52,454 nucleotides of DNA from an uncultured Candidatus Saccharibacteria bacterium (GTDB lineage Bacteria; Patescibacteriota; Minisyncoccia; Phycocordibacterales; UBA9973): positions 1-52,454 of the forward strand of contig CAYHBR010000005.1 of NCBI GenBank assembly GCA_964354985.1, given 5' to 3'. Below, one piece after another: positions 25,176 to 51,246 of this stretch. The notes under the pieces were generated by a model. The model did not search any database and had not been told where the DNA came from. It was given only the letters and a program-made list of their open reading frames with translations. The number at the start of each line of letters is the position of its first letter. The first letter of the stretch is position 1. Position numbers and translations under genes: made by a program.

Positions 25176-25198
25176 AAATATATTTTCGTATTAAAATT

Positions 25199-25639
25199 TT
25201 ATACTCGGCGAGGTTTCTTTTGCTTTGGACCATTGTGCGGTACTGGTGTCGCATCCTTGATCTCGGTAATTTCCATACCGTGAGCCATAAATGCACGCAC
25301 TGTTGGTTCGCGACCTGAACCTACGCCAACGATAATAACATCTGCTTCTTTGATACCAAGAGTCTGTGCTTTTTCACCTATAACATCTCCAACTTTTGAA
25401 GCAGCAAAAGGAGTTCCTTTCTTGGCGCCCTTGAAACCTAGGCTTCCGGCTGATGACCAAAAGAGAGCATTTCCCTGTTTGTCTGAAAAAACAACCTTTG
25501 TATTATTGAAAGTAGCCTCAACGTGGAGAGTTCCAGCGATGATTTTTTTCTTTGGAGCCTTTAAAGAAGCGCGAGCTGAGCTTTCAGCGACAACACTTCC
25601 TTCGACTCCTTCAGTTGTAATAATGCGTTTTTTTCCCAT
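25199..25639 (-). CDS. rpsK: 30S ribosomal protein S11
   Basis: ATFNNT, GFKGAKKGTPFAA, DATPVPHNG. Confidence 0.99.
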   Translation of the reverse strand: MGKKRIITTEGVEGSVVAESSARASLKAPKKKIIAGTLHVEATFNNTKVVFSDKQGNALFWSSAGSLGFKGAKKGTPFAASKVGDVIGEKAQTLGIKEADVIIVGVGSGREPTVRAFMAHGMEITEIKDATPVPHNGPKQKKPRRV

Positions 25640-34371: not shown

Positions 34372-34392
34372 TATTTTTTTGAGTCTGTAAAG

Positions 34393-35400
34393 TTACTTTA
34401 GGAATTCCGCAATATTCCGCTGATGTTCTGAATATGTTCTCGCGTAGTGAACCAGCCCATCTCTGTCGTGAACATAAAAAAGATAGTCAGTCTTTGTTGG
34501 GCGAAGAGCAGCGGTGATTGAGCGTAAACCTGGGTTTGAAATAGGACCAGGAGGTAAGCCATCATTTTTGTAAGTATTATAAAGAGAGACATCGTCTTTT
34601 ACATTTTGGGTAGTGAAACCAGCTTTTGTTCCTTCGTTTACATATAAAAAAGTAGCATCAACCTGTAGCCTCATATGACGCTTTAGGCGATTCCATAAAA
34701 TACCCGATATCATTTCCTGGTCATCTCGACCATTTGATTCTTTTTCAATAATGGAGGCCATAATTATAATTTCTTTTTCGGTGTGTCCTGAATTTGCGAT
34801 CTCTTCCAAATGTGGTTCGACTTTGTTTTGGAATTCATTAGTCAGCATATCTACAACTTCTTGCGCTGTTGCTGTTTCAAAAAAATAATATGTTTCAGGA
34901 AATAAATAGCCTTCATTTTTTTTACCAAGTTCAAGAAATGCATTTTTATCTAAACGAGGCAATGCTGAACTCAAAATATCAGCCATTTCCATAGAATTTG
35001 TGCCTTCAGGTAATGTTATTTTTGAACGACTAATTCCGTATTTACCAAATGATAATTTTTCTGCAATAGTAATTACTGATTGTGGTGTGTCGAAAAGATA
35101 AAAACCCGAACGCACTCCACGATCACCCGAGAAAATAATCACAAGGGTTTGAAACATAACTGCCGATTTAACTATATGCATTTCTTCCAGCATTTTTCCG
35201 GTTTTCATTATGCTAGTGCCGTGCGGTATTTCAACCAACTTATCAGAAGGAAAATTTTTGGGAGGCAATGAATAAACGATTAGGAAAATTGCAAAAACTA
35301 CAAACAAGACGAAGACAGCAAAAAAATAGCGGATTAATCTTTTTCCTACTCGAGGCACAGTAATTGTAATTGTTTGCTCAGGTATTTCGTCTGGTAACAT
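34393..35400 (-). CDS. mltG: endolytic transglycosylase MltG
   Basis: N-terminal TM, EGYLFPETY, MASIIEKE, LQVDAT, YNTY...GLPPGPISNPG. Confidence 0.96.
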   Translation of the reverse strand: MLPDEIPEQTITITVPRVGKRLIRYFFAVFVLFVVFAIFLIVYSLPPKNFPSDKLVEIPHGTSIMKTGKMLEEMHIVKSAVMFQTLVIIFSGDRGVRSGFYLFDTPQSVITIAEKLSFGKYGISRSKITLPEGTNSMEMADILSSALPRLDKNAFLELGKKNEGYLFPETYYFFETATAQEVVDMLTNEFQNKVEPHLEEIANSGHTEKEIIIMASIIEKESNGRDDQEMISGILWNRLKRHMRLQVDATFLYVNEGTKAGFTTQNVKDDVSLYNTYKNDGLPPGPISNPGLRSITAALRPTKTDYLFYVHDRDGLVHYARTYSEHQRNIAEFLK

Positions 35401-35413
35401 AAAATATATTCTA

Positions 35414-36676
35414 CTACATCGGCAAATTTGCAGGTGGCTCGGTCTTTTTTGATTCTATGCGTTTGAATGTCGGCGTCTCGAGAACGCGTCCAGGGAAATG
35501 GAAAATAGTAGCGAGCTCTTCCGTATTTAAAACGAAAGGTTTGCGACTTATTTTAGTATTTGCCACTCGTGAATATTTCCAAGGGGCATGAAAATAACCA
35601 CGGTTGCGATACGCTTCAAGTATTTCGGACTTGAGTCTAGCTGCCCGCGTACCAGTCATGTCCTGCCACGGATAATCATAACCGGTTAAATTTGCGGGCT
35701 TAAAGGCATTCATATTTCCGGTATTAAAATGTTTCCAAAGACCAAGTAGACCTGTAATATGGATTGGTTTGAAGGTATCTTTGTGGGCTAAATATACTGC
35801 TCTTATCCCAGTATCAAAACCATACTTCGTAATACTGCGCTCTATAGCTGACACAAGATCGTTATCACCTTTTGTTGGATGAGACGGGAATTCACTTCCG
35901 GCTAATGGTTTCTGAAAATCTGCTTTAAGTTTTTTTACGATACCTTTTCCTAAATCTTGCCATTTAATTTTTTTGAAAAAATGCTCTGGGTCTGGATATC
36001 GTCCCCAATTGGCGGCTTGGATAATTATCTGGAGCCACATTTGTTCACCTTTTCCAAGTGAGCCCATATATTCAAGTATTGGAACAATAGGGTCAATCTT
36101 TTCTTCTTCCTCGAGTGACCCAGTGGCTTTATCGAGCCCAAAATCTACATATGTTTTTATCGGATACGGATCTTCTTTTGTTAACACAAAGTCACTGCCG
36201 TACATATTCCAGTCAGCACTTTTGTTGTACGGTGGAATCATATCAGTATAATCTTCCGACTCTGCGACTTCTGCCTGTGGAAATTGAGCATAGAGTTGAG
36301 CCTCTATAATTGGGCGAAACTTTTCCTGTGTCCAAATGAAAAAGAAAACCCTACCTTCGATAGAAACAATTTCTAAAGAAAAATATGCCGGCAAGTTGCC
36401 TAGCCAATATTTTTGTACCCAAGTACCTACACCCCCCGATTGATAAAGCGCATTTTGAAGAAAAATCTCCATAGCTGCTGGTGACTTGAAAACATCTTGT
36501 GGAATCTTGATCTGAAGCAGTGTCCACTTTAGTCCGGCAATATGAACCTTGTGAATATATTTAAGCCAAAGTTTCCAGGCTATCACCGCAAATAAAAATG
36601 GAAGTATGTATGACAGCATTCCGCCAATCATACTAAAGCTATCGCTGAAAATAGTTGTATAAAAATCACCAAGCAT
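35414..36676 (-). CDS. conserved hypothetical membrane-anchored protein
   Basis: 420 aa with an N-terminal TM and FSLEIVS, QLYAQFP, YPIKTY, LNTEELATIFHFP motifs. Confidence 0.8.
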   Translation of the reverse strand: MLGDFYTTIFSDSFSMIGGMLSYILPFLFAVIAWKLWLKYIHKVHIAGLKWTLLQIKIPQDVFKSPAAMEIFLQNALYQSGGVGTWVQKYWLGNLPAYFSLEIVSIEGRVFFFIWTQEKFRPIIEAQLYAQFPQAEVAESEDYTDMIPPYNKSADWNMYGSDFVLTKEDPYPIKTYVDFGLDKATGSLEEEEKIDPIVPILEYMGSLGKGEQMWLQIIIQAANWGRYPDPEHFFKKIKWQDLGKGIVKKLKADFQKPLAGSEFPSHPTKGDNDLVSAIERSITKYGFDTGIRAVYLAHKDTFKPIHITGLLGLWKHFNTGNMNAFKPANLTGYDYPWQDMTGTRAARLKSEILEAYRNRGYFHAPWKYSRVANTKISRKPFVLNTEELATIFHFPGRVLETPTFKRIESKKTEPPANLPM

Positions 36677-36699
36677 ATGATATATAAAATTGTATCATA

Positions 36700-36747
36700 C
36701 TTAAATAAAAAAAGAGTATGTTTTTGCATACTCTTTTTTTATTTAAG
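36700..36747 (-). terminator. long hairpin terminator overlapping the upstream stop codon
   Basis: CTTAAATAAAAAAAGAGTATG-TTTTTG-CATACTCTTTTTTTATTTAAG, 21-bp arms. Confidence 0.8.
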
Positions 36748-37771
36748 CTAATGTATATAGACCCTGTTTATTTTTCTTGAAGTATTTACTATTTTGTAAA
36801 TTTACAAGGATTGTATTTTTCTTTAAAAATCTTTCTTTAAGAACCTTCTCAACAATATCTTCTTTGGTCATTGGACCGTTCTTTTTTAGTATTTCTTTTA
36901 TAACATCTTTGACTACGCCCGGTTTGTAACCCCATTCAGACAATCCGTATGTACCGCGTCCAACTAAAACGAAACGGGAATCTTTGATAAGTTCATTGTG
37001 AGTTGTCGCAACGTGAGTCTTTTTTCCAAAAGTTGACTCGATAGCTTTTGCAACTTCGCGGAAGTGCATTGGGTTGCCATGTTTACGCATTATTAAATAT
37101 GCATAGTCTTTTATTCCACGAGTTTTAACATTTGGAGAACCTGCTACACCCCATTCATTAAGTGGGTTTGACTTTATGTTCTTTGACATCCCGAGCCAAC
37201 GACGAGCTATTTCTTCATTTAAATATGATTGATTTATGTTCTTAAGTTCTTCTATAAAGCGAGAAATTATTTCAGACTCTGGAACAAGATCATCGTTTGA
37301 AAGACTTGTATAAAGTTTTTTGAGGGCATTGTGAACTTCTGTGCTCATCAATTCGTCAACACTCCATCGGGTGTGAAATTCATCATCTTCGGCATGCTTT
37401 TTAAATTCATCTCCCAATACTAAGTAAAAATGAAAATGATTTTTTAGTTCACTATCTTTAGCGAGACTTGAAAGGAGTTCGTCTTCGGCAACAATAGTAC
37501 CAAGTGAAAGTAGGGCATTTTTTAGTTCAGTAAAGGCTTCTTTTTCAGCGCCAAACATGTCAGATTTTCGGATAGTAGCTAGGGCTGCATTTTCAATCTG
37601 GCGAACGCGTTCACGGGTGATACCGTACTTTTTTCCGATTGCCTCTAGGGTCTTGCGTTCAGCATCTGGAGTGAGACCGAAACGAGAAACAACCACGTCA
37701 TGAGCGCGGTCTTGTAACACTGAAAGTATCCTTTTGCTCACCTGTTTTGGTTTTATGTTTACTGTTGCCAT
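36743..37771 (-). CDS. sigma70 region-4 plus HARE-HTH (RNAP delta-like) domain protein
   Basis: N-terminal RFGL...TLEAIGKKYGITRERVRQIE (sigma4). C-terminal PMHFREVA...HNELIKDSRFVLVGRGTYGLSEWG followed by a second wHTH. No sigma region 2. Confidence 0.85.
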   Translation of the reverse strand: MATVNIKPKQVSKRILSVLQDRAHDVVVSRFGLTPDAERKTLEAIGKKYGITRERVRQIENAALATIRKSDMFGAEKEAFTELKNALLSLGTIVAEDELLSSLAKDSELKNHFHFYLVLGDEFKKHAEDDEFHTRWSVDELMSTEVHNALKKLYTSLSNDDLVPESEIISRFIEELKNINQSYLNEEIARRWLGMSKNIKSNPLNEWGVAGSPNVKTRGIKDYAYLIMRKHGNPMHFREVAKAIESTFGKKTHVATTHNELIKDSRFVLVGRGTYGLSEWGYKPGVVKDVIKEILKKNGPMTKEDIVEKVLKERFLKKNTILVNLQNSKYFKKNKQGLYTLA

Positions 37772-37855
37772 AGATGATTTAATGTCTTATTAATTTCTTA
37801 GTAATCCCAATATATCATTCTTACCAATAAAGTCAACACCTATTGACATAAGCCC

Positions 37856-39676
37856 TTATCCATTCTTTCTTGTGGCACGAATACGATCTAGATCAGTTAA
37901 ATACTTTTTACGCAAACGAGTCGATTTTGGGGTGATTTCAAGATATTCATCATCTGACATAACCTCAAGTCCCCTTTCAATTGTAAGGGTAAATGCAGGT
38001 TTTAGGACAATTGCATCATCAGATCCTGAGGCACGCATGTTTGTGAGTTGCTTACCTTTGATAGGGTTTACGGTCATTTCCTCGCCTTTTATAACGTTTC
38101 CAATAACCATACCTTCAAACACTTCAGCTCCGTGTTCAATATAGAGTAAACCTCTTTCTTGAAGGTTCGCCAAGGCAAAAGCTACAGCTTTTCCGGCAAT
38201 CATACTGGTCATTGAACCAACTTCTCGTTGCTTAATTTCACCGGCATATGGCTTGAAGCCAATAACGCGTGATGACATTATTCCTTCACCTTTTGTATCA
38301 ACAACAAACTGACTTCGGTAACCGAGTAAACCACGAGTAGGGATCTCGAAAGCCAAACGTACGATGCCGTTTTTTTCTTGCATATGGGTCATCATCCCGC
38401 GACGCTTTGTAATCTTTTCGATAACAGCACCGGAAGATATTTCAGGAACATCAATAATCAATTCTTCGTATGGTTCTGTTTTTACACCACCATCTTCGTG
38501 AATAATAACGTGAGGTTGAGAAACCTGAAGTTCATAACCTTCTCGGCGCATATTTTCGAGAAGAACAGCGATGTGAAGTTCTCCGCGTCCGTAAACTTTA
38601 TAACTACTTGGGCCTGAAGTGTTGGCAGCTTCAAGGTTATCAAAATCAACTTTGAGTCCAACATTTATTTCAAGCTCTTTTTCAAGACGCTCGCGGATCT
38701 GTCTGCCTGTTACAAATTTACCCTCTCTTCCTGCAAAAGGAGAATCATTAACCAAAAAATCCAGCGAAATAGTTGGTTCATCAATAGCAATAGCTGGGAG
38801 TGATAGTGTATCTTCTGAGATAGCGAAAGTTTCACCGATGAAAACATCCGATATACCCGCGACAATAGCGATATCACCTGTTTCAATCTGCATTGCGTCC
38901 TTTCTCATTATTCCTTCAAATGTGAACATCTTTGTAATTTTAGCTTTACGAGTTTCGCCATCAGCTTTTTTAACTAATATCTGATCACCTGAATTTATTT
39001 TTCCGCCGTAAACACGAACGATAGCCAAGCGGCCAAGGAAATTGTCGTAACCGAGATTAAAAACTTGTGCCACAAAAGGAGAATCGCTGTGACCTGATGC
39101 AACCGGAACTTCTTCTAAAATAAGATCAAGAAGTGGTTCTAGATTTTTACGTTCATCGTCGAGTTTCCTGACTGCCACACCTTCACGTCCTATTGCATAA
39201 ATAGTTTTGAAATCGAGTTGAGCATCACTTGCACCAAGCTCAATAAAAAGTTCCAGGACTTCGTCGTGGACACGAGCTGGATCTGCGGCCGGTTTATCTA
39301 TTTTATTTATAACAACAATAGGGATAAGTCCGAGTTCGAGTGACTTTTTTAGCACAAAACGAGTTTGTGGCATTGGGCCTTCTTGTGCATCCACAAGCAA
39401 GAGAACAGAATCAATAGCCCTAAGTACTCGTTCTACTTCTGAACCAAAGTCAGCGTGTCCTGGTGTATCAACGATATTTATTTTTGTACCTTTGTAATTT
39501 ACAGAAGTATTTTTTGAGTAAATAGTAATACCTCGCTCGAGTTCAAGCGCGTTTGAGTCCATCGTCGAACCTTCGGCCGACATTCCACATTCCTGCATAA
39601 GTGCATCTGTGAGAGTTGTCTTTCCATGGTCAACGTGGGCGATAATTGCGATATTTCTGATTTCTATTGGTTGCAT
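37856..39676 (-). CDS. typA: translational GTPase TypA/BipA
   Basis: [45 protein letters not shown]. Confidence 0.99.
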
Positions 39677-39717
39677 TGTTGTAATAAAAAAATGCCTTTC
39701 GGCTTAGTTGAGCCAAT

Positions 39718-39746
39718 ACTATACCACTAGAAACATAGTTTTGCAA
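39718..39746 (-). promoter_or_regulatory. typA promoter
   Basis: TTGCAA-17 nt-TATAGT with extended -10 TG. Confidence 0.65.
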
Positions 39747-39751
39747 TTAAA

Positions 39752-40846
39752 CTAGAAAAGCTTAGTAATATCTTTATAAGTTACAAAAAGCATTAACAAA
39801 AGAAGTAAGCCGAAACCAGTAGTATTTATCCACCCAACTATTTTGGGATTCATTTTTCTGCGTGTAATAGCTTCAATTGCGATAAATAAAAGTCTTCCTC
39901 CGTCGAGAGCTGGGAAAGGGATAAGATTCATCACTGCAAGGTTTGCTGAGATAACCGCAATAAAGGAAAGCAAGTAGATAAAACCCATATTAAAAGCTTG
40001 AGTAGCGAGACCAGCAATACCTACTGGACCTGCAACATCATTTCCTGACACACCACTAGCTGAACCAAAAACACCACCAATAAAATTGACAAAGAAAAGT
40101 AATATTTGCCAAACAGTTCTACCTGCAGTCGCAAAACCTTCAACTAATGCTTTAAAAAAAGGCAACCTGATTTCACCTACGAGATCGAGTCCGACACCAA
40201 TACCGACTTGACCTGTGCCAACCCCACCGAGTTTTGGTGTGACAGAAACAGTTTTGATTTCATTATTTAATTTATAGGAGACATCTACGGCTTTATTTTC
40301 ATGTTCGCGCACATATTTTTGCATTTCTGAAACACTTGAGACTGCCGAAGTATTGCTGTCAAGCGATACAAGTACAATATTTTCGGGTAAACCTGCCAAA
40401 TCTGCAGGAGAACCTTTTTGAACAACTGAAACAACTAGTCTCTTGTTTACAGCGGTTGTGTTATTTGAATCTACGGAAACAGGCATACCAGACATAAAAC
40501 CAATTGAAAAAAGTACACCGGCCAAAAGAAAATTCATAGCTACTCCAGCTAATAGCACGATAGCCTGTTGCCATTTTGGTTTTGAATTCAAATTACTATT
40601 TTGGTCTGCGCCTTCTACATTTAAATCATCAGGATTCTCACCGAAAAGTTTTACAAAACCACCAAATGGAATCCAGTTTAAAGTGAACAGGGTGCCTTTG
40701 TAAGTAAATAGTTTTTTAGCGCGAGGCGGAAAACCAAAACCAAATTCCTCTACTTTTACACCAAATTTTTTAGCAGCAAAATAATGGCCAAATTCATGAA
40801 CCACAACGACAACGCCTAAAATTATAACTAGTAGAATAAATCCCAT
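39752..40846 (-). CDS. rseP: RIP metalloprotease RseP (M50, one PDZ domain)
   Basis: HEFGH, GGFVKL, AGVAMN, GPVGI, NLIPFPALDGG. Confidence 0.96.
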   Translation of the reverse strand: MGFILLVIILGVVVVVHEFGHYFAAKKFGVKVEEFGFGFPPRAKKLFTYKGTLFTLNWIPFGGFVKLFGENPDDLNVEGADQNSNLNSKPKWQQAIVLLAGVAMNFLLAGVLFSIGFMSGMPVSVDSNNTTAVNKRLVVSVVQKGSPADLAGLPENIVLVSLDSNTSAVSSVSEMQKYVREHENKAVDVSYKLNNEIKTVSVTPKLGGVGTGQVGIGVGLDLVGEIRLPFFKALVEGFATAGRTVWQILLFFVNFIGGVFGSASGVSGNDVAGPVGIAGLATQAFNMGFIYLLSFIAVISANLAVMNLIPFPALDGGRLLFIAIEAITRRKMNPKIVGWINTTGFGLLLLLMLFVTYKDITKLF

Positions 40847-40851
40847 ATTTT

Positions 40852-41406
40852 TTAGCCTTCCAAAACTTCTTTTTCTTTTTTCTCAAACATTTCTTCAAGC
40901 TTATTGTTTGCGGTATCCACGTGTTTTTGTAAATCTTCTTTTGCTCGGAACTTATCATCCTCACTCATACTTCCTTCTTTTTCACTTTCTTGAATATTTT
41001 CCCAGACACTTTCTCGAGCTCGACGAATAGCAATACGCGATTCTTCAAGGCGTTCTTTGAGTGTCTTTACTGTTCTTAGTCTAGTTTCTGTGGTGAGTTG
41101 TGGAAAAATAACTCGGAGCCCAGCTTCATCTGTGGCAAGTGACAAACCAAGGTTTGCTGAAGTAATACCCTTTTCAATTTCTTTTATCAAACTTGCATCC
41201 CAGGGAGCTATTCTGAGTGTTTTCGGATCCTCAATAGAAATAGAAGCGACGTTTTTGATCGGCATCCGTGAGCCATAAGATTCTACTTGAACTAGGTCAA
41301 GAACAAGAGGACTGGCGCGACCAGTGTTTAGTGATGCAAATTCAAGAGAAAGTCTTTCTTCTATTGATTTAAAATCTTTTAACAATTCTGTAAATTGATA
41401 TGCCAT
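40852..41406 (-). CDS. frr: ribosome recycling factor
   Basis: TGRASP, VESYG, PWD, PQLTTETR, SEDD, KEKEVL. Confidence 0.98.
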   Translation of the reverse strand: MAYQFTELLKDFKSIEERLSLEFASLNTGRASPLVLDLVQVESYGSRMPIKNVASISIEDPKTLRIAPWDASLIKEIEKGITSANLGLSLATDEAGLRVIFPQLTTETRLRTVKTLKERLEESRIAIRRARESVWENIQESEKEGSMSEDDKFRAKEDLQKHVDTANNKLEEMFEKKEKEVLEG

Positions 41407-41442
41407 ATACGAAAGTATACCAAATGTATAATTTATATTGTC

Positions 41443-41472
41443 ATTGACTTAGTCAATTTTAAGTTATATAGT
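41443..41472 (+). promoter_or_regulatory. promoter with a palindrome over the -35 box
   Basis: TTGACT(41444-41449)-17 nt-TATAGT(41467-41472). ATTGACT-T-AGTCAAT (41443-41457) is a perfect inverted repeat. Confidence 0.7.
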
Positions 41473-41495
41473 GCTAAAAATTAAAAACTAAAACC

Positions 41496-42518
41496 ATGGA
41501 AAAAGCTAATCCTACTATTTTGACTGAATCAATTACGATTGACGAGTTCAAAAAAATCTTCGGATTTAGATCCGATAACACTGTTCACTCATTGATTAAA
41601 AAAATCAAAGTAAATATTGTAAAAGACGGTGGCACTAGTTTCCTCGATCTAAAAGCAATAAAAAAAGCTATCAGGATCAAAGAACTGCCTGAAAAATTTC
41701 TTTCACTCGAAGAAGTTTCTATTTTACTCGACATTAATCAGAATAAAGTTATGTCATTGGTAAAACTGGGTTTTATTCCCTATTACAAATATTCTGGAAG
41801 TCGGGGTGCCAAATATCTCTTTGTTGAAAAAGAAATTATTGAAGCAAGAAATAAATTATTTGAAGCTGATGTTAAATTAACTTCAAATATTCTTTATTCT
41901 GTGACTATAAGGAAGTATTTAGACTACCAAATATTTTTCAAAGATTTGCTTACGGAACTGAAGTTGTCGGGCGATTTCTTTAGCCAGAAAGAGATATTAG
42001 TATTTTCTGGTTTATGGTTTGGAAACGAGTCACTTGAAAATCTTGCAAAAGAATTAAATTTGGGCAATGAAAGAGTCCGGCAAATCTTTGAAAAGTCAAA
42101 ACGGAAACTTTTTTTTGGAATGAAACAAATGGGTAGATATTTTGTTCAAAATAATACTCATAGATCACAAGTTGAGTTATTGACCAAACAAAACAGTGAT
42201 CATATGTTTTCTATTTCAAAATTATTATCTGTTATTTCAGATTTGCAAGAGAAAATAGTGGAACGCAATCCGAACTATTTACCACCAACAGATCTTGAAA
42301 TAATAAAAACCAAGCTCCTTAAAATGCCTGTCACGGACCTGGATATAGGTGTTAGAGCACAAAATGCCCTCAGATCTGCCGAAATATTTACAGTTGGAGA
42401 TATTTTAGACAAAGAAAAAAATGACTTGTGTGGGCTCAGGTCAGTTGGCATCAAAACGATCCGCGAGATTAATGACGCAATTGTCGGCCTAGGGCTGGAT
42501 TGGAAAGTAAGAAGGTGA
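41496..42518 (+). CDS. multidomain transcription-related protein: HTH(s) + sigma70 region 4 + RNAP alphaCTD-like domain
   Basis: FLSLEEVSILLDI...GFIPYYK...YLF (excisionase/HTH_17-like); SLENLAKELNLGNERVRQI (sigma4); PVTDLDIGVRAQNALRSAEIFTVGD...VGIKTIREI (alphaCTD, aligns by eye to RpoA in this window). Confidence 0.85.
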   Translation: MEKANPTILTESITIDEFKKIFGFRSDNTVHSLIKKIKVNIVKDGGTSFLDLKAIKKAIRIKELPEKFLSLEEVSILLDINQNKVMSLVKLGFIPYYKYSGSRGAKYLFVEKEIIEARNKLFEADVKLTSNILYSVTIRKYLDYQIFFKDLLTELKLSGDFFSQKEILVFSGLWFGNESLENLAKELNLGNERVRQIFEKSKRKLFFGMKQMGRYFVQNNTHRSQVELLTKQNSDHMFSISKLLSVISDLQEKIVERNPNYLPPTDLEIIKTKLLKMPVTDLDIGVRAQNALRSAEIFTVGDILDKEKNDLCGLRSVGIKTIREINDAIVGLGLDWKVRR

Positions 42519-42520
42519 GT

Positions 42521-42549
42521 AAAATGGAGAAATATTATTTCTCCATTTT
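42521..42549. terminator. bidirectional terminator
   Basis: AAAATGGAGAAATA-T-TATTTCTCCATTTT between convergent genes. Confidence 0.82.
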
Positions 42550-42574
42550 TTATTTTATTTTTTTATTAAATAAC

Positions 42575-43255
42575 TTAATGATCTGTCAATTGCATCGCCA
42601 TTGTTTCTAAAAGTTGTTTGGCGGAAGAACCGCGGTCGTTTAAGTAATTTCGGAGTTCCAAAATTCTTTCAAGCTGTTCCCTTTCAGTTGAAGTTGTGTT
42701 GGCTCCAATTTTTTTTCTTAACACATCTATTACAGTATCAAAAATTTCTAGGGCTACATCCCGAAAAGCAGTCGGATTATCTTTTTTAAATTTCTTAGAT
42801 ACATTTTCAATATATTCAAATCTGTCAGCCAAAGTAATAGCTAAAAAATCTGGGTGACTGCTACTGCTTTTTGAAACTTCTGTTTTTGAAATTAAAATAC
42901 AACGGGAACGAATTGTTGGCAAAAGGATTTCTGGGTTATCAACAAAAATAAGAAAATGCATTCCGGCTCTTGGCTCTTCGACTGTTTTGAGTAAAGCATG
43001 CTGTGCTTCGTGACCTATTGATCTAGATGATATTACAATGAAGGTTTCACCTTCGGACAACAGATTACTCATTTCAGAAATAGCTCTACTGTCATCAATA
43101 CTAAAATTTTCGGCCTTATATAAAATTGCATTTTGGTTTGATCCAAACTTTATACTAAATAGATTTTCAATTTTAGGAATTACTATGCCGTAGTCACTCC
43201 CTGAAAAAATGTAGGAGTGAGAAATTATTCCTGAAAAAAGTTTTTCAATATCCAT
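42575..43255 (-). CDS. holB: DNA polymerase III delta'-like protein (short, degenerate)
   Basis: HSYIFSG, SIDDSR, EAQHALLKTVEEP, LLPTIRSRC (SRC motif). Confidence 0.85.
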   Translation of the reverse strand: MDIEKLFSGIISHSYIFSGSDYGIVIPKIENLFSIKFGSNQNAILYKAENFSIDDSRAISEMSNLLSEGETFIVISSRSIGHEAQHALLKTVEEPRAGMHFLIFVDNPEILLPTIRSRCILISKTEVSKSSSSHPDFLAITLADRFEYIENVSKKFKKDNPTAFRDVALEIFDTVIDVLRKKIGANTTSTEREQLERILELRNYLNDRGSSAKQLLETMAMQLTDH

Positions 43256-43291
43256 ATATAAAATAAATTTAAAAATTTATTAAAAAAAAGA

Positions 43292-44305
43292 CTAACGTTT
43301 ACTTAAAATACTTTTCTTATATGTATCCAAATGCTCAAGAGCAACACCCGTACCTTTTACAACACAAAGAAGCGGTTCGTCTGCAAGCTGCGCTTTGACT
43401 CCAGTTTTTCGGTAAACGAGATCGGGAAAACCGCGGAGCTGTGAAGTCCCACCGGTCATCGTAATTCCAGAATCAATAATATCAGCCGCAAGCTCGGGTG
43501 GTGTTTCCTGTAAGACATCCTTAATGGCTTTAATCATAAGTTTTAACTCGCCATCGATAGCTCTGACAATTTCATTTGTTGAAATAGAGGCAGTGCGAGG
43601 TAGGCCTTGAACATAATCCCGACCCTTGATAGTAACAGTCAGTTCTTCTTCAAGTGAAATAGCTGCTCCAATTTTTACTTTGACCATCTCGGCCGTCTTG
43701 TCCCCAATAGCAAGGTTGAAAGTTTTTTTAATATAGTCAGTAATAGCGGCATCTATTTTGTTGCCTGCACATTTTACAGAAGTTGCAGCAACTATTCCAC
43801 CGAGGGAAATCACGGCGACATCTGTTGTGCCACCACCGATGTCCACAATCATGTGTCCACGAGACTCATAAATAGGAATACCGGCGCCAATAGCAGCTAA
43901 AATTGGCTCTTTCACTATATAGGCATTTTTTGCTCCGGCACGAATCGTGGCTTCAACAACGGCGCGTCTTTCGGTAGAAGTAATTCCCGCCGGAACAGAT
44001 ACCATAACGTCTGGTTTGAAAACAGAAAAAGGACCGAGTGCTTTTCTTATAAAATACCTGAGCATGGCCTCTGTAACACGATAATCGGCAATAACACCAT
44101 CTTTCAGTGGCCTATATGCAACGATTGATTCAGGAGTGCGACCAATCATTTCTTTGGCCTCACGACCTATTGAAAGTATTTTATTATCTTGTTCAGAAAT
44201 AGCGACAACAGACGGTTCAGCGAGCACAATCCCTTTACCCGGCACAAAAACCAACGTATTTGCGGTGCCCAAATCTATACCAATTTTTCGAGAGAAAATA
44301 CTCAT
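43292..44305 (-). CDS. mreB: rod shape-determining protein MreB/Mbl
   Basis: IGIDLGTANTL, PLKDGVIAD, VDIGGGTTD, TGGTSQL. Start at ATG 44305. Confidence 0.97.
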   Translation of the reverse strand: MSIFSRKIGIDLGTANTLVFVPGKGIVLAEPSVVAISEQDNKILSIGREAKEMIGRTPESIVAYRPLKDGVIADYRVTEAMLRYFIRKALGPFSVFKPDVMVSVPAGITSTERRAVVEATIRAGAKNAYIVKEPILAAIGAGIPIYESRGHMIVDIGGGTTDVAVISLGGIVAATSVKCAGNKIDAAITDYIKKTFNLAIGDKTAEMVKVKIGAAISLEEELTVTIKGRDYVQGLPRTASISTNEIVRAIDGELKLMIKAIKDVLQETPPELAADIIDSGITMTGGTSQLRGFPDLVYRKTGVKAQLADEPLLCVVKGTGVALEHLDTYKKSILSKR

Positions 44306-44350
44306 ATTTGTGACGAGAGTATAGCATAAAATGTGTGATAGTCTTAAGGG

Positions 44351-46237
44351 GTGAAAGCTGTACACATATTTCCTATTGGAGGCGGACCTGACAAGGGTTC
44401 TCTTTCATATTTTACCGCAAAAGAAGTATTTGTTGGAGACACTGTAAGCATAACCATCCGCGGACGAAAAGTTTTGGGTATTGTTGATGAAGTAGATGAT
44501 ATCGAAGAAGACCGAACCAGTATAAAGCAATCAGCCTTTAAATTAAAAAAAATTGATGCGGTTCTCGGCCAGACTATTCACGGCGGAGTTCTATACAAAA
44601 CTGCCAAAATTTTAGCTCGATATTATATTTCCCACCCAGGACACATTCTTTCAGCCATCACACCCGTAATCTTTTCTGATCCAATCCTCAAAGATATTCG
44701 TCGAATAAATAAAATCACTGATACAGAAAAATCTTCAAGATTGTTACCGTTATTAATACAGACCTCAAAAGTCGATCGGGTAATTTATTTTAAAAAACTT
44801 ATTCGCGAGTACTTTGCAAAAAAAGAATCTGTGGCAATAATTTTACCGACTATTTCTGAGGCCAAGGAGTGGCGCGAGTTGTTGTCTAAAGGCATAACCG
44901 AGCACACTATTTTTTTTACCGGCGAAGAAAATAAAAAAAACCAAAAAGAGATGGTCCGAAAGGCATCGGATTCAGCACACTCACTTTTATTGATTGGAAC
45001 ATTATCAGCTGCTATCCTACCTGTGAAAAAACTTGGTGCCATAATAGTCGAACACGAATCTTCTGGCTTATATAATACAAGGAAGAAACCTTTTATTGAT
45101 AAAAGAATTGTAGCTGAAGTTTTCGCCCATATCTGCAATATACCGTGTTATTTTTCTGATTCTTTACTCGAACTTAAGACAAGTGGCCGTATACAACTTG
45201 GAACCGCGACCGCAGTGGAGAAATTAAATTTTCGAATCCCGGGAAAATCTTCCGAAATAATTGACCTGACTATAAAAAAGACCGATGGTGAAATTTTTAG
45301 AGCTATTTCAAAGCCTGCATTAAAAGAGATAAGGGAAAGTATTGAGAATAATGAGCAAATTTTTATTTTTTCATTCCGTAAAAATTATGCCTCTAACACT
45401 GTCTGTAAAGACTGTGGCGAGGGAGTAACTTGCTTAAAATGTGAACATGCGCTTGCTCTACTTTCACAAAACGAACGCACTTTTTATTGCTCACACTGCA
45501 ACGAAAACAAGAGAACGAATATTGTTTGTGGTAGGTGTAATAGCTGGAATTTGGTCCCGCTTGGTGTTGGGATCGATCGAGTAAAAGAAGAATTGGATGA
45601 AGCCGGTCTTGGAGATAATATTATTCAAATAGATGGCCGTCAAAAAGATTCTGAAATAGAAATGGGTGCCAAACAATTTGTAGATCGTAAAAAAAATATC
45701 CTAATTGGAACAGAAGCAGCCATAAGCAGATTACCTGACGGAGTTGATCTAGTTGTTGTGGCTTCGATTGATAGTCTTTTCGCAATGCCGATATACACAG
45801 CACCTGAGCGAGCCGCACATTTACTTATGAGACTAGCCGAAATATCAAAAAAAACAATTATTCAAACAAGATACACTCACGAAACAATTTTAGAAAATAT
45901 TAAGCGTGGAACATTTAGTGAATTTTCAGAAACCGAATTCTCAACTAGAAAATCTCTTGGCTATCCGCCTTTTGTTCGACTTATCAATCTATCATTTACC
46001 GGACAACAAGCATCAGTCGAAAAAGCCACGAAAAAGCTTGAGGGAATGTTCGAAGAATACAAACCGGAATTTTTTGAAGCGACAGACTTTAAAGGACACA
46101 CAAATGTTCGAATGCAGATCAAACTTGAGCCAGAACTTTGGCCGATTGTTCCTAAAAATGAAAACGATACTACGGAGGAAGATTTATATTCCAAGCTTGC
46201 TAGTCTACCAAAAGCGATAAAAATTAATATAGAATAA
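44351..46237 (+). CDS. priA: primosomal protein N' (PriA) with degenerate helicase motifs
   Basis: N-terminal LSY...VG..V.I.I.GRK..GIV, four CxxC pairs, LGVGIDRV, IIQTR, LGYPPF. GTG start. Confidence 0.88.
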   Translation: MKAVHIFPIGGGPDKGSLSYFTAKEVFVGDTVSITIRGRKVLGIVDEVDDIEEDRTSIKQSAFKLKKIDAVLGQTIHGGVLYKTAKILARYYISHPGHILSAITPVIFSDPILKDIRRINKITDTEKSSRLLPLLIQTSKVDRVIYFKKLIREYFAKKESVAIILPTISEAKEWRELLSKGITEHTIFFTGEENKKNQKEMVRKASDSAHSLLLIGTLSAAILPVKKLGAIIVEHESSGLYNTRKKPFIDKRIVAEVFAHICNIPCYFSDSLLELKTSGRIQLGTATAVEKLNFRIPGKSSEIIDLTIKKTDGEIFRAISKPALKEIRESIENNEQIFIFSFRKNYASNTVCKDCGEGVTCLKCEHALALLSQNERTFYCSHCNENKRTNIVCGRCNSWNLVPLGVGIDRVKEELDEAGLGDNIIQIDGRQKDSEIEMGAKQFVDRKKNILIGTEAAISRLPDGVDLVVVASIDSLFAMPIYTAPERAAHLLMRLAEISKKTIIQTRYTHETILENIKRGTFSEFSETEFSTRKSLGYPPFVRLINLSFTGQQASVEKATKKLEGMFEEYKPEFFEATDFKGHTNVRMQIKLEPELWPIVPKNENDTTEEDLYSKLASLPKAIKINIE

Positions 46238-46265
46238 AAAAAGAGTCATCATAAACTGATGACTC
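46236..46265. terminator. terminator between convergent priA and hypothetical gene
   Basis: A-tract plus GAGTCATCA-TAAAC-TGATGACTC. Confidence 0.7.
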
Positions 46266-46271
46266 CCACTG

Positions 46272-46706
46272 CTATTCCAATTCTCCTTTTCTTAATTTTT
46301 TTGCATCTATATGCACTATGAAATTTATTTTTTTATCCGGCCCAAATTTGCAAATCTTTATTTGATCTGTAAAACCTTTTTTAACTTCAATAGTTGATTC
46401 AGCATAAGCCGGAATAACAATTTTAAATAAAGGATTTATGTCATTTTGAGTGGGCTCTGATAAATGATATCCCAAAATTATTTTTTGTTCATCATTGGTA
46501 TTCACAAATTTGTAATATTCTTTTTCATTTACGATATTTTTTATAAATATACCGTATTCTTCTGTGGAGTATACTTTTGTAGATCTAGAAAAATATATTC
46601 CAATAGTCAATACAAGTAATAATATTATAAATAAGGCTTTGCCGAATATGTTAACTTTTTTAAACATTTCGGGTGACTTATAAAGTGAGGGGGAGATTCT
46701 CTTCAT
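46272..46706 (-). CDS. hypothetical membrane-anchored protein
   Basis: Very AT-rich 144-aa ORF with one N-terminal TM helix (ALFIILLLVLTIGIYF). Confidence 0.65.
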   Translation of the reverse strand: MKRISPSLYKSPEMFKKVNIFGKALFIILLLVLTIGIYFSRSTKVYSTEEYGIFIKNIVNEKEYYKFVNTNDEQKIILGYHLSEPTQNDINPLFKIVIPAYAESTIEVKKGFTDQIKICKFGPDKKINFIVHIDAKKLRKGELE

Positions 46707-46843
46707 ATTTTTTTGTTTAATGACTTGTGTAAATTGTATATTGCCACAGATACCATGACTCTGTCAATGTGCCGTAATGTGTCATGAGCTTGTGCCTGCC
46801 AAAGCACTTGCCTACTTGTAAAATGCGTGCTATCTTTTAAGGC

Positions 46844-47071
46844 ATGTCAGCATACCAAGTTGAAGTTAAAAAGAATACCAACGAAAACAACGTAAGTCTC
46901 TTGCGCCGTTTTTCCCGTAAAATAATGGATACTCATATTATCCAAAACGTTAAGGGCAATCGCTACAACGAGAGAGCTCCCTCAAAACTAGCCACTAAAA
47001 ATGGTGCAATCCGAAAACTCAAGCGACGAGCAGAATACGAAAAGCTCAAGAAACTCGGAAAAGTCCAATAA
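46844..47071 (+). CDS. rpsU: 30S ribosomal protein S21 (divergent)
   Basis: VEVKKNTNEN..SLLRRFSRK...RYNERAPSK...basic helix, matching the bS21 pattern; lies upstream of ybeY. Confidence 0.8.
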   Translation: MSAYQVEVKKNTNENNVSLLRRFSRKIMDTHIIQNVKGNRYNERAPSKLATKNGAIRKLKRRAEYEKLKKLGKVQ

Positions 47072-47088
47072 TTGCATACTAAAACGCA

Positions 47089-47472
47089 ATGAAAGACGAG
47101 ACACTCGAAATTACGAATGAAACAAAAGGCAAGCTCCCGAGCTTGCCTTTTCTCGTTATTAAAAACACTATTTTGGGTAAAAAGTACGACTTGTCTATTG
47201 TTTACCTAAATCCTGCTAAAGCAAAAAAACTAAATGCCTCGTTTCGACAGAAAGATTACGCGACAGATATTTTGTCATTTCCGCTCTCAAAAATAAGTGG
47301 CGAAATTTTCCTTTGCCCCAAAATAATCTCAAAAAAGGCCGCGGAATTTGGAATGACTGAGAAAATATACAATAAATTTATAGTTATACACGGAATGCTT
47401 CATTTGAAAGGATACGAACATAGTAGTAGAATGGAACAAGCGGAAAAAAAATTCTTGAAACTTTTCTCGTAA
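47089..47472 (+). CDS. ybeY: rRNA maturation RNase YbeY
   Basis: LNASFRQKDYATDILSF, GEIFLC, IHGMLHLKGYEH. Confidence 0.96.
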   Translation: MKDETLEITNETKGKLPSLPFLVIKNTILGKKYDLSIVYLNPAKAKKLNASFRQKDYATDILSFPLSKISGEIFLCPKIISKKAAEFGMTEKIYNKFIVIHGMLHLKGYEHSSRMEQAEKKFLKLFS

Positions 47473-47521
47473 TCATTTTTTTGATTACAAATTTCAGTAG
47501 TTTTGTGCCGTCCCTTTTTAC

Positions 47522-48685
47522 ATGAACAGAAATATTACAGTTGGAATTGATGTCGGTACTTATGCAACTCGTGTTGCAGTTGCTGAACATATCAAAGGTG
47601 AACGCGCTCCGCGCATCATTGGTACAGGTACTACCCCTACTCGAGGTTTGCGCCACGGTTACATTACCAACATTGAACAAGCTACGAAAACTATTGAGAA
47701 AGCCCTTCACGAAGCCGAGAAAAATTCTGGTATAAAAATCAAGCGTGTTTTTGCAACAGTTGGTGGAATAGGTCTTGAGTCAGCAACTTCTTTAGGTAGT
47801 GCTGTTATTTCTAAAGCTGACGGCGAAGTTACTCAACTCGATATTCAAAAAGCTATTCAAACCGCCGAAGATAATCTTGAAATAAAAAATCGCCGTATTC
47901 TCCACCGCTTGCCTATTGGTTTTAAACTAGACGGGAAAAATCTACCTGGCCGACCTGAGCGAATCAAGGGCATGAAACTGGAAGTAAAAGTTCTATTTAT
48001 AACTTGTTTTGAACAACACCTTGAAGACTTACTAACTGCGATTTCTGATGCAGGTGTTGAAGTTATCGATGTGGTCGCAAGTCCTATTACTGCCGGGGAA
48101 GTTGCACTCACTGATAGAGATCGAAACATGGGATGTCTTCTTGTCGATATTGGTTCTGAAACTGTAACGATGGCAGTTTTTGAAGAAGGCTCTGTTGTTG
48201 CGCTGCGTGTTTTTGCGACCGGTTCTACTTATATTACAAACGATATCGCTCTTGGCATGAAGGTCTCTCTTGAAGAAGCTGAAGGTCTAAAGATTGGCTC
48301 AGTTATCGGAGCATATTCAAAAAAGAAATTGGATGAGATTATCGAAGCTCGTATAAAAGATATTTATTGGATTATTGATTCTTATCTTAAAAAAATAAAA
48401 CGCAGTGGACTCCTTCCAGCTGGTGTTGTTATTCTCGGTGGCGGTTCACACCTCAGCGTCATAGAGGAACTCGGCAAAGACGAACTCCGTTTGCCTTGTC
48501 GCATTGGTACGCCAGAAGCTTTTGCAAATACAAAAAATAAAATCCGAGATACGAGTTGGTTCCCAGTTCTAGGTCTTGTTATTCTTGGTAAAAACACACC
48601 GTTTCAATCCGGTGGTAATGTTAGCGATTTTTTCATTCGTCTAAAGAAATCTATCGGTAATTTACTAAAGCAGTTGATGCCGTAG
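47522..48685 (+). CDS. ftsA: cell division protein FtsA
   Basis: GIDVGT, GLRHGYI, VDIGSET, ITNDIA...AEGLK, LGGGS, and a C-terminal amphipathic helix; lies upstream of ftsZ. Confidence 0.96.
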   Translation: MNRNITVGIDVGTYATRVAVAEHIKGERAPRIIGTGTTPTRGLRHGYITNIEQATKTIEKALHEAEKNSGIKIKRVFATVGGIGLESATSLGSAVISKADGEVTQLDIQKAIQTAEDNLEIKNRRILHRLPIGFKLDGKNLPGRPERIKGMKLEVKVLFITCFEQHLEDLLTAISDAGVEVIDVVASPITAGEVALTDRDRNMGCLLVDIGSETVTMAVFEEGSVVALRVFATGSTYITNDIALGMKVSLEEAEGLKIGSVIGAYSKKKLDEIIEARIKDIYWIIDSYLKKIKRSGLLPAGVVILGGGSHLSVIEELGKDELRLPCRIGTPEAFANTKNKIRDTSWFPVLGLVILGKNTPFQSGGNVSDFFIRLKKSIGNLLKQLMP

Positions 48686-48875
48686 TAGACTTCCCTTTTT
48701 CTATGCGTCTGCTATGATACCTTTATACCCGCTCTCGGCGAGCATTTAACAGCAAGAATATGTCCTTTATTTATAAGCCTTTTGCAAGGTAATGCCATTG
48801 TCACGCCTGCATTATTTTTTTTACCAAGCAAATACCAAACTAAGTAAAAGACATTTTTAACACATTTATAAACAT

Positions 48876-50132
48876 ATGGCAAAAATCAACCCAGACATCG
48901 AAACATTCGCACGCATTAAGGTTATTGGTCTTGGTGGTTCAGGAAAAAACGCAATCAACCATATGATCAACAGCAAAGTCAAAGGTGTTGAGTTCATCGT
49001 TATGAACACTGATACACAAGACTTACACAATTCCCTTGCTGAAAAGAAAATTCACATAGGAAAAAATCTGACGAAAGGTCTTGGTGCCGGAATGAATCCA
49101 GATGTTGGAAAGCGCGCTGCCGAAGAAACTAAATCTGAAATACAAGATGTCATAAAAGGTTCTGATATGGTTTTCATTGCTTGTGGTCTTGGTGGTGGAA
49201 CAGGAACTGGTTCCGCTCCTATTGTTGCTCGCGCCGCAAAAGAGCAAGGAGTACTCACTGTTGGTGTAGTCACCAAGCCATTCTTTTTTGAAGGTGCGCA
49301 ACGAATGCGACTTGCGGAACAAGGTCTCGCCGAGCTTGAAAAAGAAGTTGATGCTATTATTGTTATCCCAAACGACCGCCTGCTCGCTATTGCCGGAAAA
49401 GATATGGGCTTCAAAGATGCCTTTATGCTCTGTGATGATGTTCTTCGTCAAGCAGTTGAAGGTATTTCCGAACTCATCACTCGCCCAGGTGAAGTCAATG
49501 TCGACTTTGCCGATATCAAAACTATCATGCATGACACTGGCACTGCTCTCATGGGTCTTGGTCGCGCTTCTGGCGACAATCGCGCTGAGCAAGCGGCAAT
49601 GCAGGCTATCAACTCGCCTCTCCTTGATGTTTCGATCAACGGTGCCAAGGGCGTGCTTTTTGCAATCTCTGGTGGCGACGATATTACATTCAACGAAGTC
49701 CAACGCGCTGCGACTATTGTCACTGAATCTATTGACAAAGAAGCTCGCGTTATCTGGGGTATGGTTCCAGACGATCGCCTCAAGAAAGGCGAAATGCAAG
49801 TTACTGTTATCGCTACTGGTTTTCCAAATGCCGAAGGAACAGTCAAGAAGTCACTTTTTATGAATCAGCCTATTTCAACCATGCAGCAACCTGTTGCTGA
49901 TAAAAAGACATCGACAATAGAAGAAAAGCGCGAAGATAAACGCGAAGATAAAAAGGACGATAAACGCGAAATCAATCACGCTCCACTCACTGCCAATAGT
50001 GGCGAATATGTTAAGAAAATTGAGCGTACAGAAAAGCCTGAAATCATCGACGAAACAGACGCTGAAAGCTTCGACGACGACCTCGATGAATGGAATGCGA
50101 TTCCGGCTTTCCTACGAAGAAAGAAGCAATAG
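48876..50132 (+). CDS. ftsZ: cell division protein FtsZ
   Basis: GLGGGTGTG tubulin signature, NTDTQ, VNVDFADIK, C-terminal IPAFLRRK. Confidence 0.99.
   Translation: MAKINPDIETFARIKVIGLGGSGKNAINHMINSKVKGVEFIVMNTDTQDLHNSLAEKKIHIGKNLTKGLGAGMNPDVGKRAAEETKSEIQDVIKGSDMVFIACGLGGGTGTGSAPIVARAAKEQGVLTVGVVTKPFFFEGAQRMRLAEQGLAELEKEVDAIIVIPNDRLLAIAGKDMGFKDAFMLCDDVLRQAVEGISELITRPGEVNVDFADIKTIMHDTGTALMGLGRASGDNRAEQAAMQAINSPLLDVSINGAKGVLFAISGGDDITFNEVQRAATIVTESIDKEARVIWGMVPDDRLKKGEMQVTVIATGFPNAEGTVKKSLFMNQPISTMQQPVADKKTSTIEEKREDKREDKKDDKREINHAPLTANSGEYVKKIERTEKPEIIDETDAESFDDDLDEWNAIPAFLRRKKQ
49926..49970 (+). repeat. imperfect 12-nt tandem repeat in the FtsZ linker (KRED KRED KKDD KRE)
   Basis: AAGCGCGAAGAT AAACGCGAAGAT AAAAAGGACGAT AAACGCGAA. 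Confidence 0.75.
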
Positions 50133-50165
50133 ACTAGAAAAATTAAAAATTTTCACGAAACCATT

Positions 50166-50198
50166 AGAAATTCCGCCACAATTGGCGGATTTCTTTTT
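50166..50198 (+). terminator. terminator after ftsZ
   Basis: TCCGCCA-CAAT-TGGCGGA followed by TTTCTTTTT. Confidence 0.8.
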
Positions 50199-50226
50199 AT
50201 TTACCTGAGATGCTAAAATATAACTT

Positions 50227-51177: not shown

Positions 51178-51246
51178 ATTTTATCGCTCAGGTTGATTTT
51201 TTACATGGTATAATTGTATCCAAACTCGTTCCTAAACAATCAGACC

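Follow-up and report, generated by a model that had tools for sequence, protein, structure and literature searches.

The window analysed here, meaning the whole stretch of 52,454 nucleotides on contig CAYHBR010000005.1, comes from an uncultured Candidatus Saccharibacteria bacterium, a tiny freshwater organism. An open reading frame (ORF) at 41496..42518 on the forward strand starts with ATG and contains 340 codons, which encode a protein of 340 aa. The protein is composed of two winged helix-turn-helix (HTH) domains, an HTH domain similar to region 4 of the sigma-70 factors (sigma4), a long helix, and a domain similar to the one at the C-terminus of RNA polymerase's alpha subunit (alphaCTD). 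Proteins with this order of an HTH_17 winged HTH, sigma4, a long helix and alphaCTD constitute an uncurated family, which is common to tailed phages and to ultra-small bacteria resembling those of the candidate phyla radiation (CPR). It is rather probable that the 340-aa protein is an accessory DNA-binding transcription regulator of this phage-shared family, which might act as a dimer and read promoter-like DNA. Its architecture is that of an HTH regulator assembled from the polymerase's own promoter-reading modules, and the gene belongs to a sizeable unnamed family.

The first-pass annotation of the window, made from the sequence alone, had read the protein as one or two excisionase/HTH_17-like repeats, a sigma4-like HTH and an alphaCTD. 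This reading was confirmed by profile matches and by a confident AlphaFold2 (AF2) model. The domains are listed below.

41529..41672, forward strand: winged HTH 1 (residues 12-59), with strands at 12-14, 41-44 and 47-51 and helices at 15-22, 27-37 and 52-59 in the AF2 model; predicted local distance difference test (pLDDT) >90.
41691..41864, forward strand: winged HTH 2 (residues 66-123) of the HTH_17 or MerR/Xis type, from Pfam HTH_17, AF2 and fold matches.
41883..42125, forward strand: sigma-70 region-4-like domain (residues 130-210) with the recognition helix NERVRQIF, from profiles, AF2 and fold matches.
42111..42266, forward strand: long helix (residues 206-257) continuing the last sigma4 helix, a putative coiled-coil dimerisation element, from AF2 and periodicity.
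42291..42506, forward strand: alphaCTD (residues 266-337), from Pfam and from PDB sequence and fold matches.

The alphaCTD gave the highest Pfam score. RNA_pol_A_CTD (PF03118) matched residues 272-328 with 46.6 bits (cut-off 23.8; E 2.8e-12), and a phmmer search of the PDB at E <= 10 returned 43 distinct sequences, comprising 42 RpoA sequences (best E 2e-9) and one designed repeat protein (E 0.18). The fold is that of the Bacillus subtilis alphaCTD (1z3e_B), with Z 13.1, a root-mean-square deviation (rmsd) of 0.9 A over 67/67 residues, and a Foldseek TM score of 0.94. The likeness to the resident RpoA, which had been noticed by eye, also held, with 40% identity over residues 273-334. For the sigma4 domain, Sigma70_r4 (PF04545) matched residues 167-205 with 21.1 bits, below its cut-off of 24.1. 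The region-4 HTH fold is present; for example, 8jzt_A was matched at Z 9.5 (rmsd 1.5 A over 57 residues), and SigA of Taq (4xln_F), to which model residues 134-210 are 23% identical, at Z 8.1. The Pfam scan and the structure prediction, which the first-pass annotation had proposed as checks, therefore found both the sigma4 and the alphaCTD matches, the former being sub-threshold in this protein.

The N-terminal part also gave matches to known DNA-binding folds. HTH_17 (PF12728) matched residues 68-116 with 25.1 bits against a cut-off of 27. Winged HTH 1 (residues 12-59) had no Pfam match; in the AF2 model it shows the strand-helix-helix-strand-strand-helix order of HTH_17. Fold matches of residues 66-129 included 6hn7_A (Z 8.3), the MerR-type CvkR (Z 7.7), BmrR (Z 7.6) and the Xis of Pukovnik (Z 7.4); because Z 7.4-8.3 is a common range, these matches count only jointly with the profile matches. 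Among the MerR/Xis binders, BmrR, CvkR and the Xis of mycobacteriophage Pukovnik match residues 66-129 in fold (Z 7.4-7.7), and HTH_17 matches the family of the protein; whereas the protein has no MerR effector domain or partner integrase, and its HTH is duplicated in tandem.

The AF2 model, built on an alignment of 48 relatives (A1), has a mean pLDDT of 92.3 and places the alphaCTD at residues 266-331. The predicted template modelling score (pTM) is 0.52, a value expected of an architecture like beads on a string. Residues 191-257 are modelled as one uninterrupted helix of 67 residues. In 30/48 relatives the hydrophobic period of this helix lies at 3.3-3.8, and z exceeds 2 in 24/48. The predicted coiled coil is the least secure of the domain assignments.

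The 340-aa protein is neither a sigma factor, nor an RpoA paralogue, nor a substitute for a lost alphaCTD. The alpha N-terminal dimerisation and insert domains (RNA_pol_L and RNA_pol_A_bac) are absent from it by Pfam, and the NCBIfam RpoA equivalogs match residues 240-337 only, with 45.6 bits against cut-offs of 227-523. Sigma70_r2 gave no match in the protein at E <= 10, and the NCBIfam sigma equivalogs match about 30 residues, far under their cut-offs. Since region 2 is lacking, the protein cannot melt promoters. Moreover, the genome encodes its own full primary-type sigma factor, and the resident RpoA (window 23541..24521, reverse strand) keeps its alphaCTD at residues 255-317 (Pfam 58.8 bits). 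The closest known counterpart is the pair of alphaCTD on the upstream (UP) element and sigma region 4 on the -35 element in the holoenzyme (e.g. PDB 3n97). Both folds and the DNA-contact residues of Escherichia coli are kept here; whereas the two modules are joined in one chain by a helix of about 60 residues, two N-terminal winged HTHs are added, and the alpha N-terminal domain, sigma regions 2 and 3, and the core polymerase are missing. Compared with the sigma-70 factors and the domain-4-only sigma-like proteins, the region-4 fold and the ERVRQ helix are shared, whereas region 2 is lacking in this protein.

That the modules still bind DNA is argued mainly from the conservation of their DNA-reading residues, in a family with an identity of otherwise about 23% per column. 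The domain alignments used RpoA and RpoD of E. coli (NC_000913.3) as references. Residue 265 of the alphaCTD and its neighbours are described in passages of PMC1874639 as the DNA-binding determinant, the 261 determinant as the contact to sigma region 4, and the 287 determinant as the contact to CRP. Residues R287, N290, A291, G318, K320 and T321 of the 340-aa protein align with R265, N268, C269, G296, K298 and S299 of E. coli RpoA. Within the 265 determinant only C269 is altered (A291), and the resident RpoA likewise has A at this position. Across the 48 relatives, R265 is R in 45, N268 is N in 40, G296 is G in 48, K298 is K in 39 (and R in 4 more), and S299 is S or T in 41. The 287 position is not conserved across these 48 proteins.

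The recognition helix of the sigma4 domain reads NERVRQIF, versus RERIRQIE in E. coli sigma70. E585, R586, R588 and Q589, the region-4 residues that read the -35 element (compare the Taq sigma region 4/-35 DNA structure, 1ku7), are all kept in the 340-aa protein. Among the relatives they are conserved in 32 (E585), 32 (R586), 30 (R588) and 34 (Q589) of the 48. The earlier suggestion that the protein might read promoter-like upstream DNA would fit the contact residues conserved in both the alphaCTD and sigma4.

A word-index homology search with the single sequence found only the protein itself, and with a profile it found 5 proteins. An exhaustive HMMER search of 1.84 billion representatives gave 1615 matches at E <= 1e-3, of which 72 reached E <= 1e-10 and 3 reached E <= 1e-30. 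Alignment A1 was made from the metagenome protein libraries, by picking from the best 150 matches 48 with a single matched stretch that covers nearly the whole query. There are therefore at least 48 full-length relatives, which align end to end with the 340-aa protein at 20-33% identity and have the same domain order. Pfam at E <= 0.01 recognised RNA_pol_A_CTD in 48/48 of them, HTH_17 in 46/48, and Sigma70_r4 in 38/48 (best E 3.5e-13). The A1 profile matched RpoA C-terminal domains (E 8.6e-30) and SigA region 4 (E 6e-8) in the PDB. In hmmsearch with A1, the 340-aa protein scored 280 bits, the proteins of genomes G523 and G790 scored 285 and 284, and that of phage locus L053 scored 117. Most of the remaining HMMER matches listed carry a single alphaCTD or several repeats of it in a different context.

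Automatic database names already show the domains of the family, and the searches made did not place the architecture in any already characterised family. The PHROG families gave 0 matches for the 340-aa protein. No description of a sigma4-alphaCTD or HTH_17-sigma4-alphaCTD protein was found in the full-text literature searched, outside which lies Iyer and Aravind (2012, J Struct Biol), a paper that could cover alphaCTD fusions.

The link to phages appeared first as a lead in the ESM Atlas, where the three Pfam families are found together in the nearest clusters, most of whose labels are Viruses/Uroviricota. The virus share was 58% in a cluster of 573 members, 100% in those of 88 and 53 members, 71% in that of 61, and 75% in that of 56. 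A scan of the viral contigs of IMG/VR with an 8-row sub-alignment gave 59 pattern stretches, 32 of them confirmed, and 30 loci. Sigma70_r4 and RNA_pol_A_CTD exceeded the Pfam cut-offs in 8/11 phage proteins scanned. Locus L051 showed an alphaCTD with HTH_17 and a Mor-type match, L053 an alphaCTD with sub-threshold Sigma70_r4 and HTH_17, and L057 an alphaCTD only by Pfam. The A1 profile covered these proteins widely, for example at positions 63-315 in L053 (E 1e-36), 47-311 in L057 and 64-316 in L050.

The contigs of the phage relatives also carry typical phage genes. The L053 contig encodes a terminase large subunit, a portal protein, a replication initiator, an exonuclease and a Holliday-junction resolvase; the L052 contig encodes RecT, DnaD- and DnaC-like loaders, RusA and a methyltransferase; and the L057 contig encodes an endolysin, an exonuclease and SSB. 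In all three the family gene lies in or directly after the replication and recombination module, and in L053 it lies upstream of the packaging genes. This is the position of middle or late gene regulators. The phage proteins (IMG/VR L050-L057 and L061-L065, and the ESM Atlas clusters of 53-573 members) have the same domain order as the 340-aa protein; for the IMG/VR loci, the A1 profile aligned over positions 47-316 of 317 and the Pfam domains are common. They are shorter (223-343 aa), and the majority carry a single winged HTH, none at all, or in its place a Cro/C1-type HTH. Moreover, the phage genes are located in replication modules; whereas the gene studied here is a solitary chromosomal gene between frr and holB.

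We infer a mechanism in which the protein would bind DNA as a dimer formed by the long helices of two chains, with up to four DNA-reading heads per chain. The sigma4-type HTH would read a -35-like hexamer in the major groove, and the alphaCTD, through its intact 265 determinant, would read the adjacent A/T-rich minor groove. Further specificity for sites might come from the two MerR/Xis-type winged HTHs. Held on promoter-like DNA in this manner, with no core polymerase, the protein could either block the holoenzyme or recruit and stabilise it at particular promoters. The chromosomal copy is a solitary, fast-evolving and dispensable gene with its own promoter-like site. If family members bind promoter-like DNA alone, they would offer a phage or a cell a simple way to block or re-aim the host polymerase. 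The gene points to a sizeable, largely phage-borne and unnamed family, in which a separate protein holds copies of the two upstream-promoter-reading modules of the polymerase. As for the gene itself, the reading is more modest, namely an optional and fast-changing accessory regulator outside the core transcription machinery. Each transcription factor in ultra-small bacteria matters, because the recognisable ones are very few.

A further-reaching version, which we regard as rather unlikely, is that the family represents a free-standing upstream half of the promoter complex. The tied and dimerised sigma4 and alphaCTD heads would recognise -35/UP-like DNA alone, and would compete with the host holoenzyme or pre-mark sites for it; such a device for phage takeover or gene timing would have been kept by some ultra-small bacteria as a lone chromosomal regulator that changes rapidly. 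If true, it would represent a class of transcription factor derived wholesale from the promoter-recognition modules of the polymerase.

Several observations weigh against the reading as a DNA-binding regulator shared with phages. The Sigma70_r4 and HTH_17 scores of the 340-aa protein itself both lie below the Pfam cut-offs. The hydrophobic period of its long helix is 3.45, which is not significant compared with shuffles (z 1.4); the short coiled coil proposed by the first-pass annotation is modelled as a single helix at 191-257. The equivalent of R584 in the sigma4 domain is N here, and R in only 20/48 relatives. The recognition helix is not kept in the congeners, being ARGQIAII in G004 and NARVQQIV in G005. 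There is therefore no single shared target motif, and the targets probably differ between species. No candidate operator was found in the window, genome-wide or upstream of 11 relatives. On the side of the phage link, the taxon labels of the ESM Atlas rest on few members. The contigs found in RNA libraries (described below) may derive from contaminating DNA.

The first alternative, a somewhat unlikely one, is an RNA polymerase adaptor. The sigma4-like domain would dock on the beta-flap in place of, or beside, region 4 of the resident sigma factor, and the winged HTHs and the alphaCTD would redirect the polymerase to a new promoter class. The protein would then be a specificity factor attached to the polymerase, as opposed to one that binds DNA freely. 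Docking on the core or the holoenzyme is the way of phage T4 gp33 and of AsiA/MotA. The sigma4 fold spans the equivalents of regions 4.1-4.2 (model residues 130-210), and the phage relatives are placed where late or middle regulators usually lie, both of which would suit an adaptor. Many domain-4-only sigma-like proteins occur in phages and bacteria according to portions of a preprint on domain-only sigma proteins (10.64898/2026.10.08.757525), in the main text of which 'alpha' and 'CTD' each occur 0 times. However, the DNA-reading residues of both modules are conserved, as a free DNA binder would need too, and a full sigma factor is encoded in the genome, as is an RpoA whose alphaCTD is intact.

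The distribution of the gene in cellular genomes bears on whether the accessory regulator has a wider role. The phylum was sampled evenly with 401 genomes, scoring at most the best 5 candidates of each; among the matches listed, a full-length one occurred only in this genome. Two other genomes have chromosomal proteins, L021 (G309, 784..2055, 423 aa) and L022 (G195, 1450..2496, 348 aa), in which an unrelated N-terminus precedes Sigma70_r4 and alphaCTD, both scoring over the Pfam cut-offs; the rest of the matches listed were RpoA tails. Various heads are therefore joined to the sigma4-helix-alphaCTD core. Among 401 genomes of the organism's own bacterial family, 20 match at E <= 1e-22, and 11 of these match near the whole profile (G004, G026, G033, G460, G466, G523, G527, G622, G643, G790, and G000, which is this genome). 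The N-terminal two-thirds only were found in G005, G487 and G516, and the match in G487 is perhaps cut by a contig end.

The surroundings of the gene differ between genera. For the 8 copies outside the genus that were scanned, the neighbours were different every time and were housekeeping genes, including Hsp20/PrsW; ATP synthase epsilon with a methylase; PGK/HIT/DHH; rpoD; TspO with a Dam-type methylase; and DnaJ/DnaK. For two copies the neighbours matched no family. No phage genes were present within about 1.5 kb of these 8 copies. In one single case, L094 (G466, 122..2484), the primary sigma factor gene rpoD stands immediately upstream of the homologue, in the same orientation and at a distance of 100 bases.

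Within the genus, the gene occupies a slot between two genes on the opposite strand. The Pfam matches of the flanking genes bear out the position given by the first-pass annotation.

40852..41406, reverse strand: frr on one flank of the 340-aa ORF (Pfam RRF, E 5.5e-49).
42575..43255, reverse strand: holB-like gene on the other flank (Pfam DNA_pol3_delta2).

Farther out, RseP and BipA follow on one flank and MreB on the opposite one. With 706,546 bases in 23 contigs and an estimated completeness of 100%, the genome lies in the size range of ultra-small (CPR-like) bacteria. The content of the slot in this genome (G000) and its congeners was as follows.

G000: the 340-aa gene.
G004: a copy of 343 aa, 28% identical.
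G005 (L006): a copy of 259 aa without alphaCTD, 24% identical.
G007 (L017): a protein of 161 aa with alphaCTD only (26.5 bits).
G002 (L019): no gene; the gap between holB and frr is 64 bases.
G006 (L016): an unrelated ORF of 382 aa beside frr, with a weak DUF5568 match.
G001: the contig ends here.
G003: frr not found (genome 74% complete).

The frr-holB slot is a small hot spot of change, and the gene has occupied it since before these congener species split. Between congeners the 340-aa protein is 24-28% identical, versus 73-82% for Frr, 64-73% for RseP, 50-71% for HolB and 92-95% for MreB. This low identity and the variation of the slot indicate that the gene is dispensable and evolves far faster than its neighbours. 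The first-pass annotation had suggested horizontal acquisition. The suggestion agrees with a family that is common to phages and occupies a different chromosomal site in each genus examined; however, synteny of this copy extends to three congeners and the gene is ordinary in composition, and therefore it is not a recent arrival. The GC content is 0.332 versus 0.396 +/- 0.043, and that at third codon positions is 0.302 versus 0.319 +/- 0.061, so composition does not support recent horizontal transfer.

The same distribution bears on the proposal of the first-pass annotation that the protein might be a global repressor or decoy, coating upstream promoter regions (-35 and UP element) genome-wide without core RNA polymerase. 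The conserved residues for reading the -35 element and the minor groove, and a promoter of its own that looks strong, are compatible with such a role. However, a full-length copy is present in only 11/401 genomes of the bacterial family, the slot is empty in G002, G005 and G007 have truncated copies only, the congeners differ in the recognition helix, and the identity to them is 24-28% as compared with 50-95% for the neighbours. Because the distribution is patchy and the gene dispensable, a global housekeeping role is unlikely; the proposal found no support and is considered improbable.

Lower still is the probability of a phage-defence decoy or sensor, in which free sigma4 and alphaCTD, the two polymerase modules that phage take-over proteins attack most frequently, would titrate or sense such proteins, by analogy with the alphaCTD-like domain in the BREX kinase PglW. 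The alphaCTD has local matches to PglW models (NCBIfam E 1.2e-4; PADLOC E 1.2e-6), and the fast evolution and the presence/absence variation are typical of conflict genes. In the PADLOC match, residues 262-330 align with profile positions 790-857 of 1403 at 24.7 bits. However, the match is limited to the alphaCTD stretch, the NCBIfam score is 19.9 bits against a cut-off of 990, and there is no kinase, other defence component or BREX gene. The neighbours are housekeeping genes, and phages themselves carry the family, which is a better fit for a regulator than for a host decoy.

It is very improbable that the protein is an excisionase or recombination directionality factor of a mobile element, as its HTH_17 domains might suggest. 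HTH_17 and excisionase-type profiles match it, and PHROG excisionase families match the N-termini of the phage relatives L051 and L052; however, the protein is about 5x the length of Xis and has two further DNA-binding modules. A Pfam scan of 19 neighbouring ORFs (window 33235..52350 and 23541..25639) found no integrase or other mobile-element gene among them, no attachment sites were seen beside the gene, and the 8 copies outside the genus have housekeeping neighbours. Finally, the idea of a detached polymerase part, which would make good the loss of the alphaCTD from the alpha subunit of the polymerase, is hardly tenable and is refuted for this genome by the intact alphaCTD of the resident RpoA; the 340-aa protein also lacks the alpha N-terminal domains.

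For the accessory regulator, the first-pass annotation had also proposed a promoter and a terminator of its own. Both a promoter-like site and a terminator-like hairpin were found by prediction.

41444..41472, forward strand: sigma-70-type promoter-like site TTGACT-17-TATAGT, with 10/12 consensus matches; the ATG follows 24 bases downstream.
42521..42549, forward strand: terminator-like hairpin followed by a T run, with a stem of 13 pairs including 3 G-C pairs, and therefore G+C-weak.

The TTGAC-17-TATAGT layout also lies 5' of the syntenic genes in the congeners G005 and G007. Promoter-like sites as a class are not enriched in the stretch (7 versus 6.1 +/- 2.5 in shuffles). A perfect 7-1-7 palindrome, ATTGACT-T-AGTCAAT, is located at 41443-41457 between frr and the 340-aa gene, and contains two divergent -35-like hexamers. 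With up to 2 mismatches, its pattern has 6 sites in the window versus 3.6 +/- 2.1 in shuffles. Genome-wide, TTGACNNNGTCAA was not enriched, with 4 sites versus 3 for a control pattern. None of the 11 relatives examined has the TTGACT palindrome upstream, not even where the ERVRQ helix is present, and it is unique to its own genome. Being neither conserved in the relatives nor enriched in the genome, it was rejected as an autoregulatory operator of the family.

Expression was checked in 3 metatranscriptome runs from samples that also hold the DNA. Two RNA-library contigs lie inside the ORF with at least 99% identity, at 41762-41993 (X6) and 42148-42399 (X7), one each in 2/3 runs. No such contigs were found on frr or holB in the 2.5 kb compared, and contigs of this kind cannot rank genes. 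They are a weak hint that the 340-aa gene is transcribed; the hint is only weak because carry-over of DNA is possible and the contigs give neither ends nor strand.

Other proteins with an alphaCTD were met in the searches. The library proteins P0003 (1031 aa) and P0017 (736 aa) are tandem alphaCTD arrays with 9 and 7 alphaCTD-like stretches, respectively. The ORF of 459 aa at L009 (G014, 409..1788) matches no Pfam family other than alphaCTD (58.2 bits). Similar frames of about 460-477 aa, which end in an alphaCTD, are met again in the relatives G014, G004:C1, G018:C2 and G555:C21, and look like a separate alphaCTD-bearing family. A weak match on contig C2 of the present genome was considered as a third alphaCTD paralogue and rejected, as it corresponds to the helix-hairpin-helix region of the NAD-dependent DNA ligase.

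Three further ORFs of the window, at 44351..46237 (forward strand, 628 aa), 35414..36676 (reverse strand, 420 aa) and 46272..46706 (reverse strand, 144 aa), have no Pfam match at E <= 1e-5. The second half of the 628-aa protein contains a CxxC cluster, which by eye resembles a zinc-binding region. The ORF at 36743..37771 (reverse strand, 341 aa) also consists of polymerase parts, namely Sigma70_r4 at residues 15-68 (47.8 bits) and HARE-HTH at residues 219-279 (55.1 bits). Its recognition helix, TRERVRQIE, is similar to that of the resident sigma factor, and a local PADLOC match to MzaA (E 1.6e-8) is confined to its sigma4 part.

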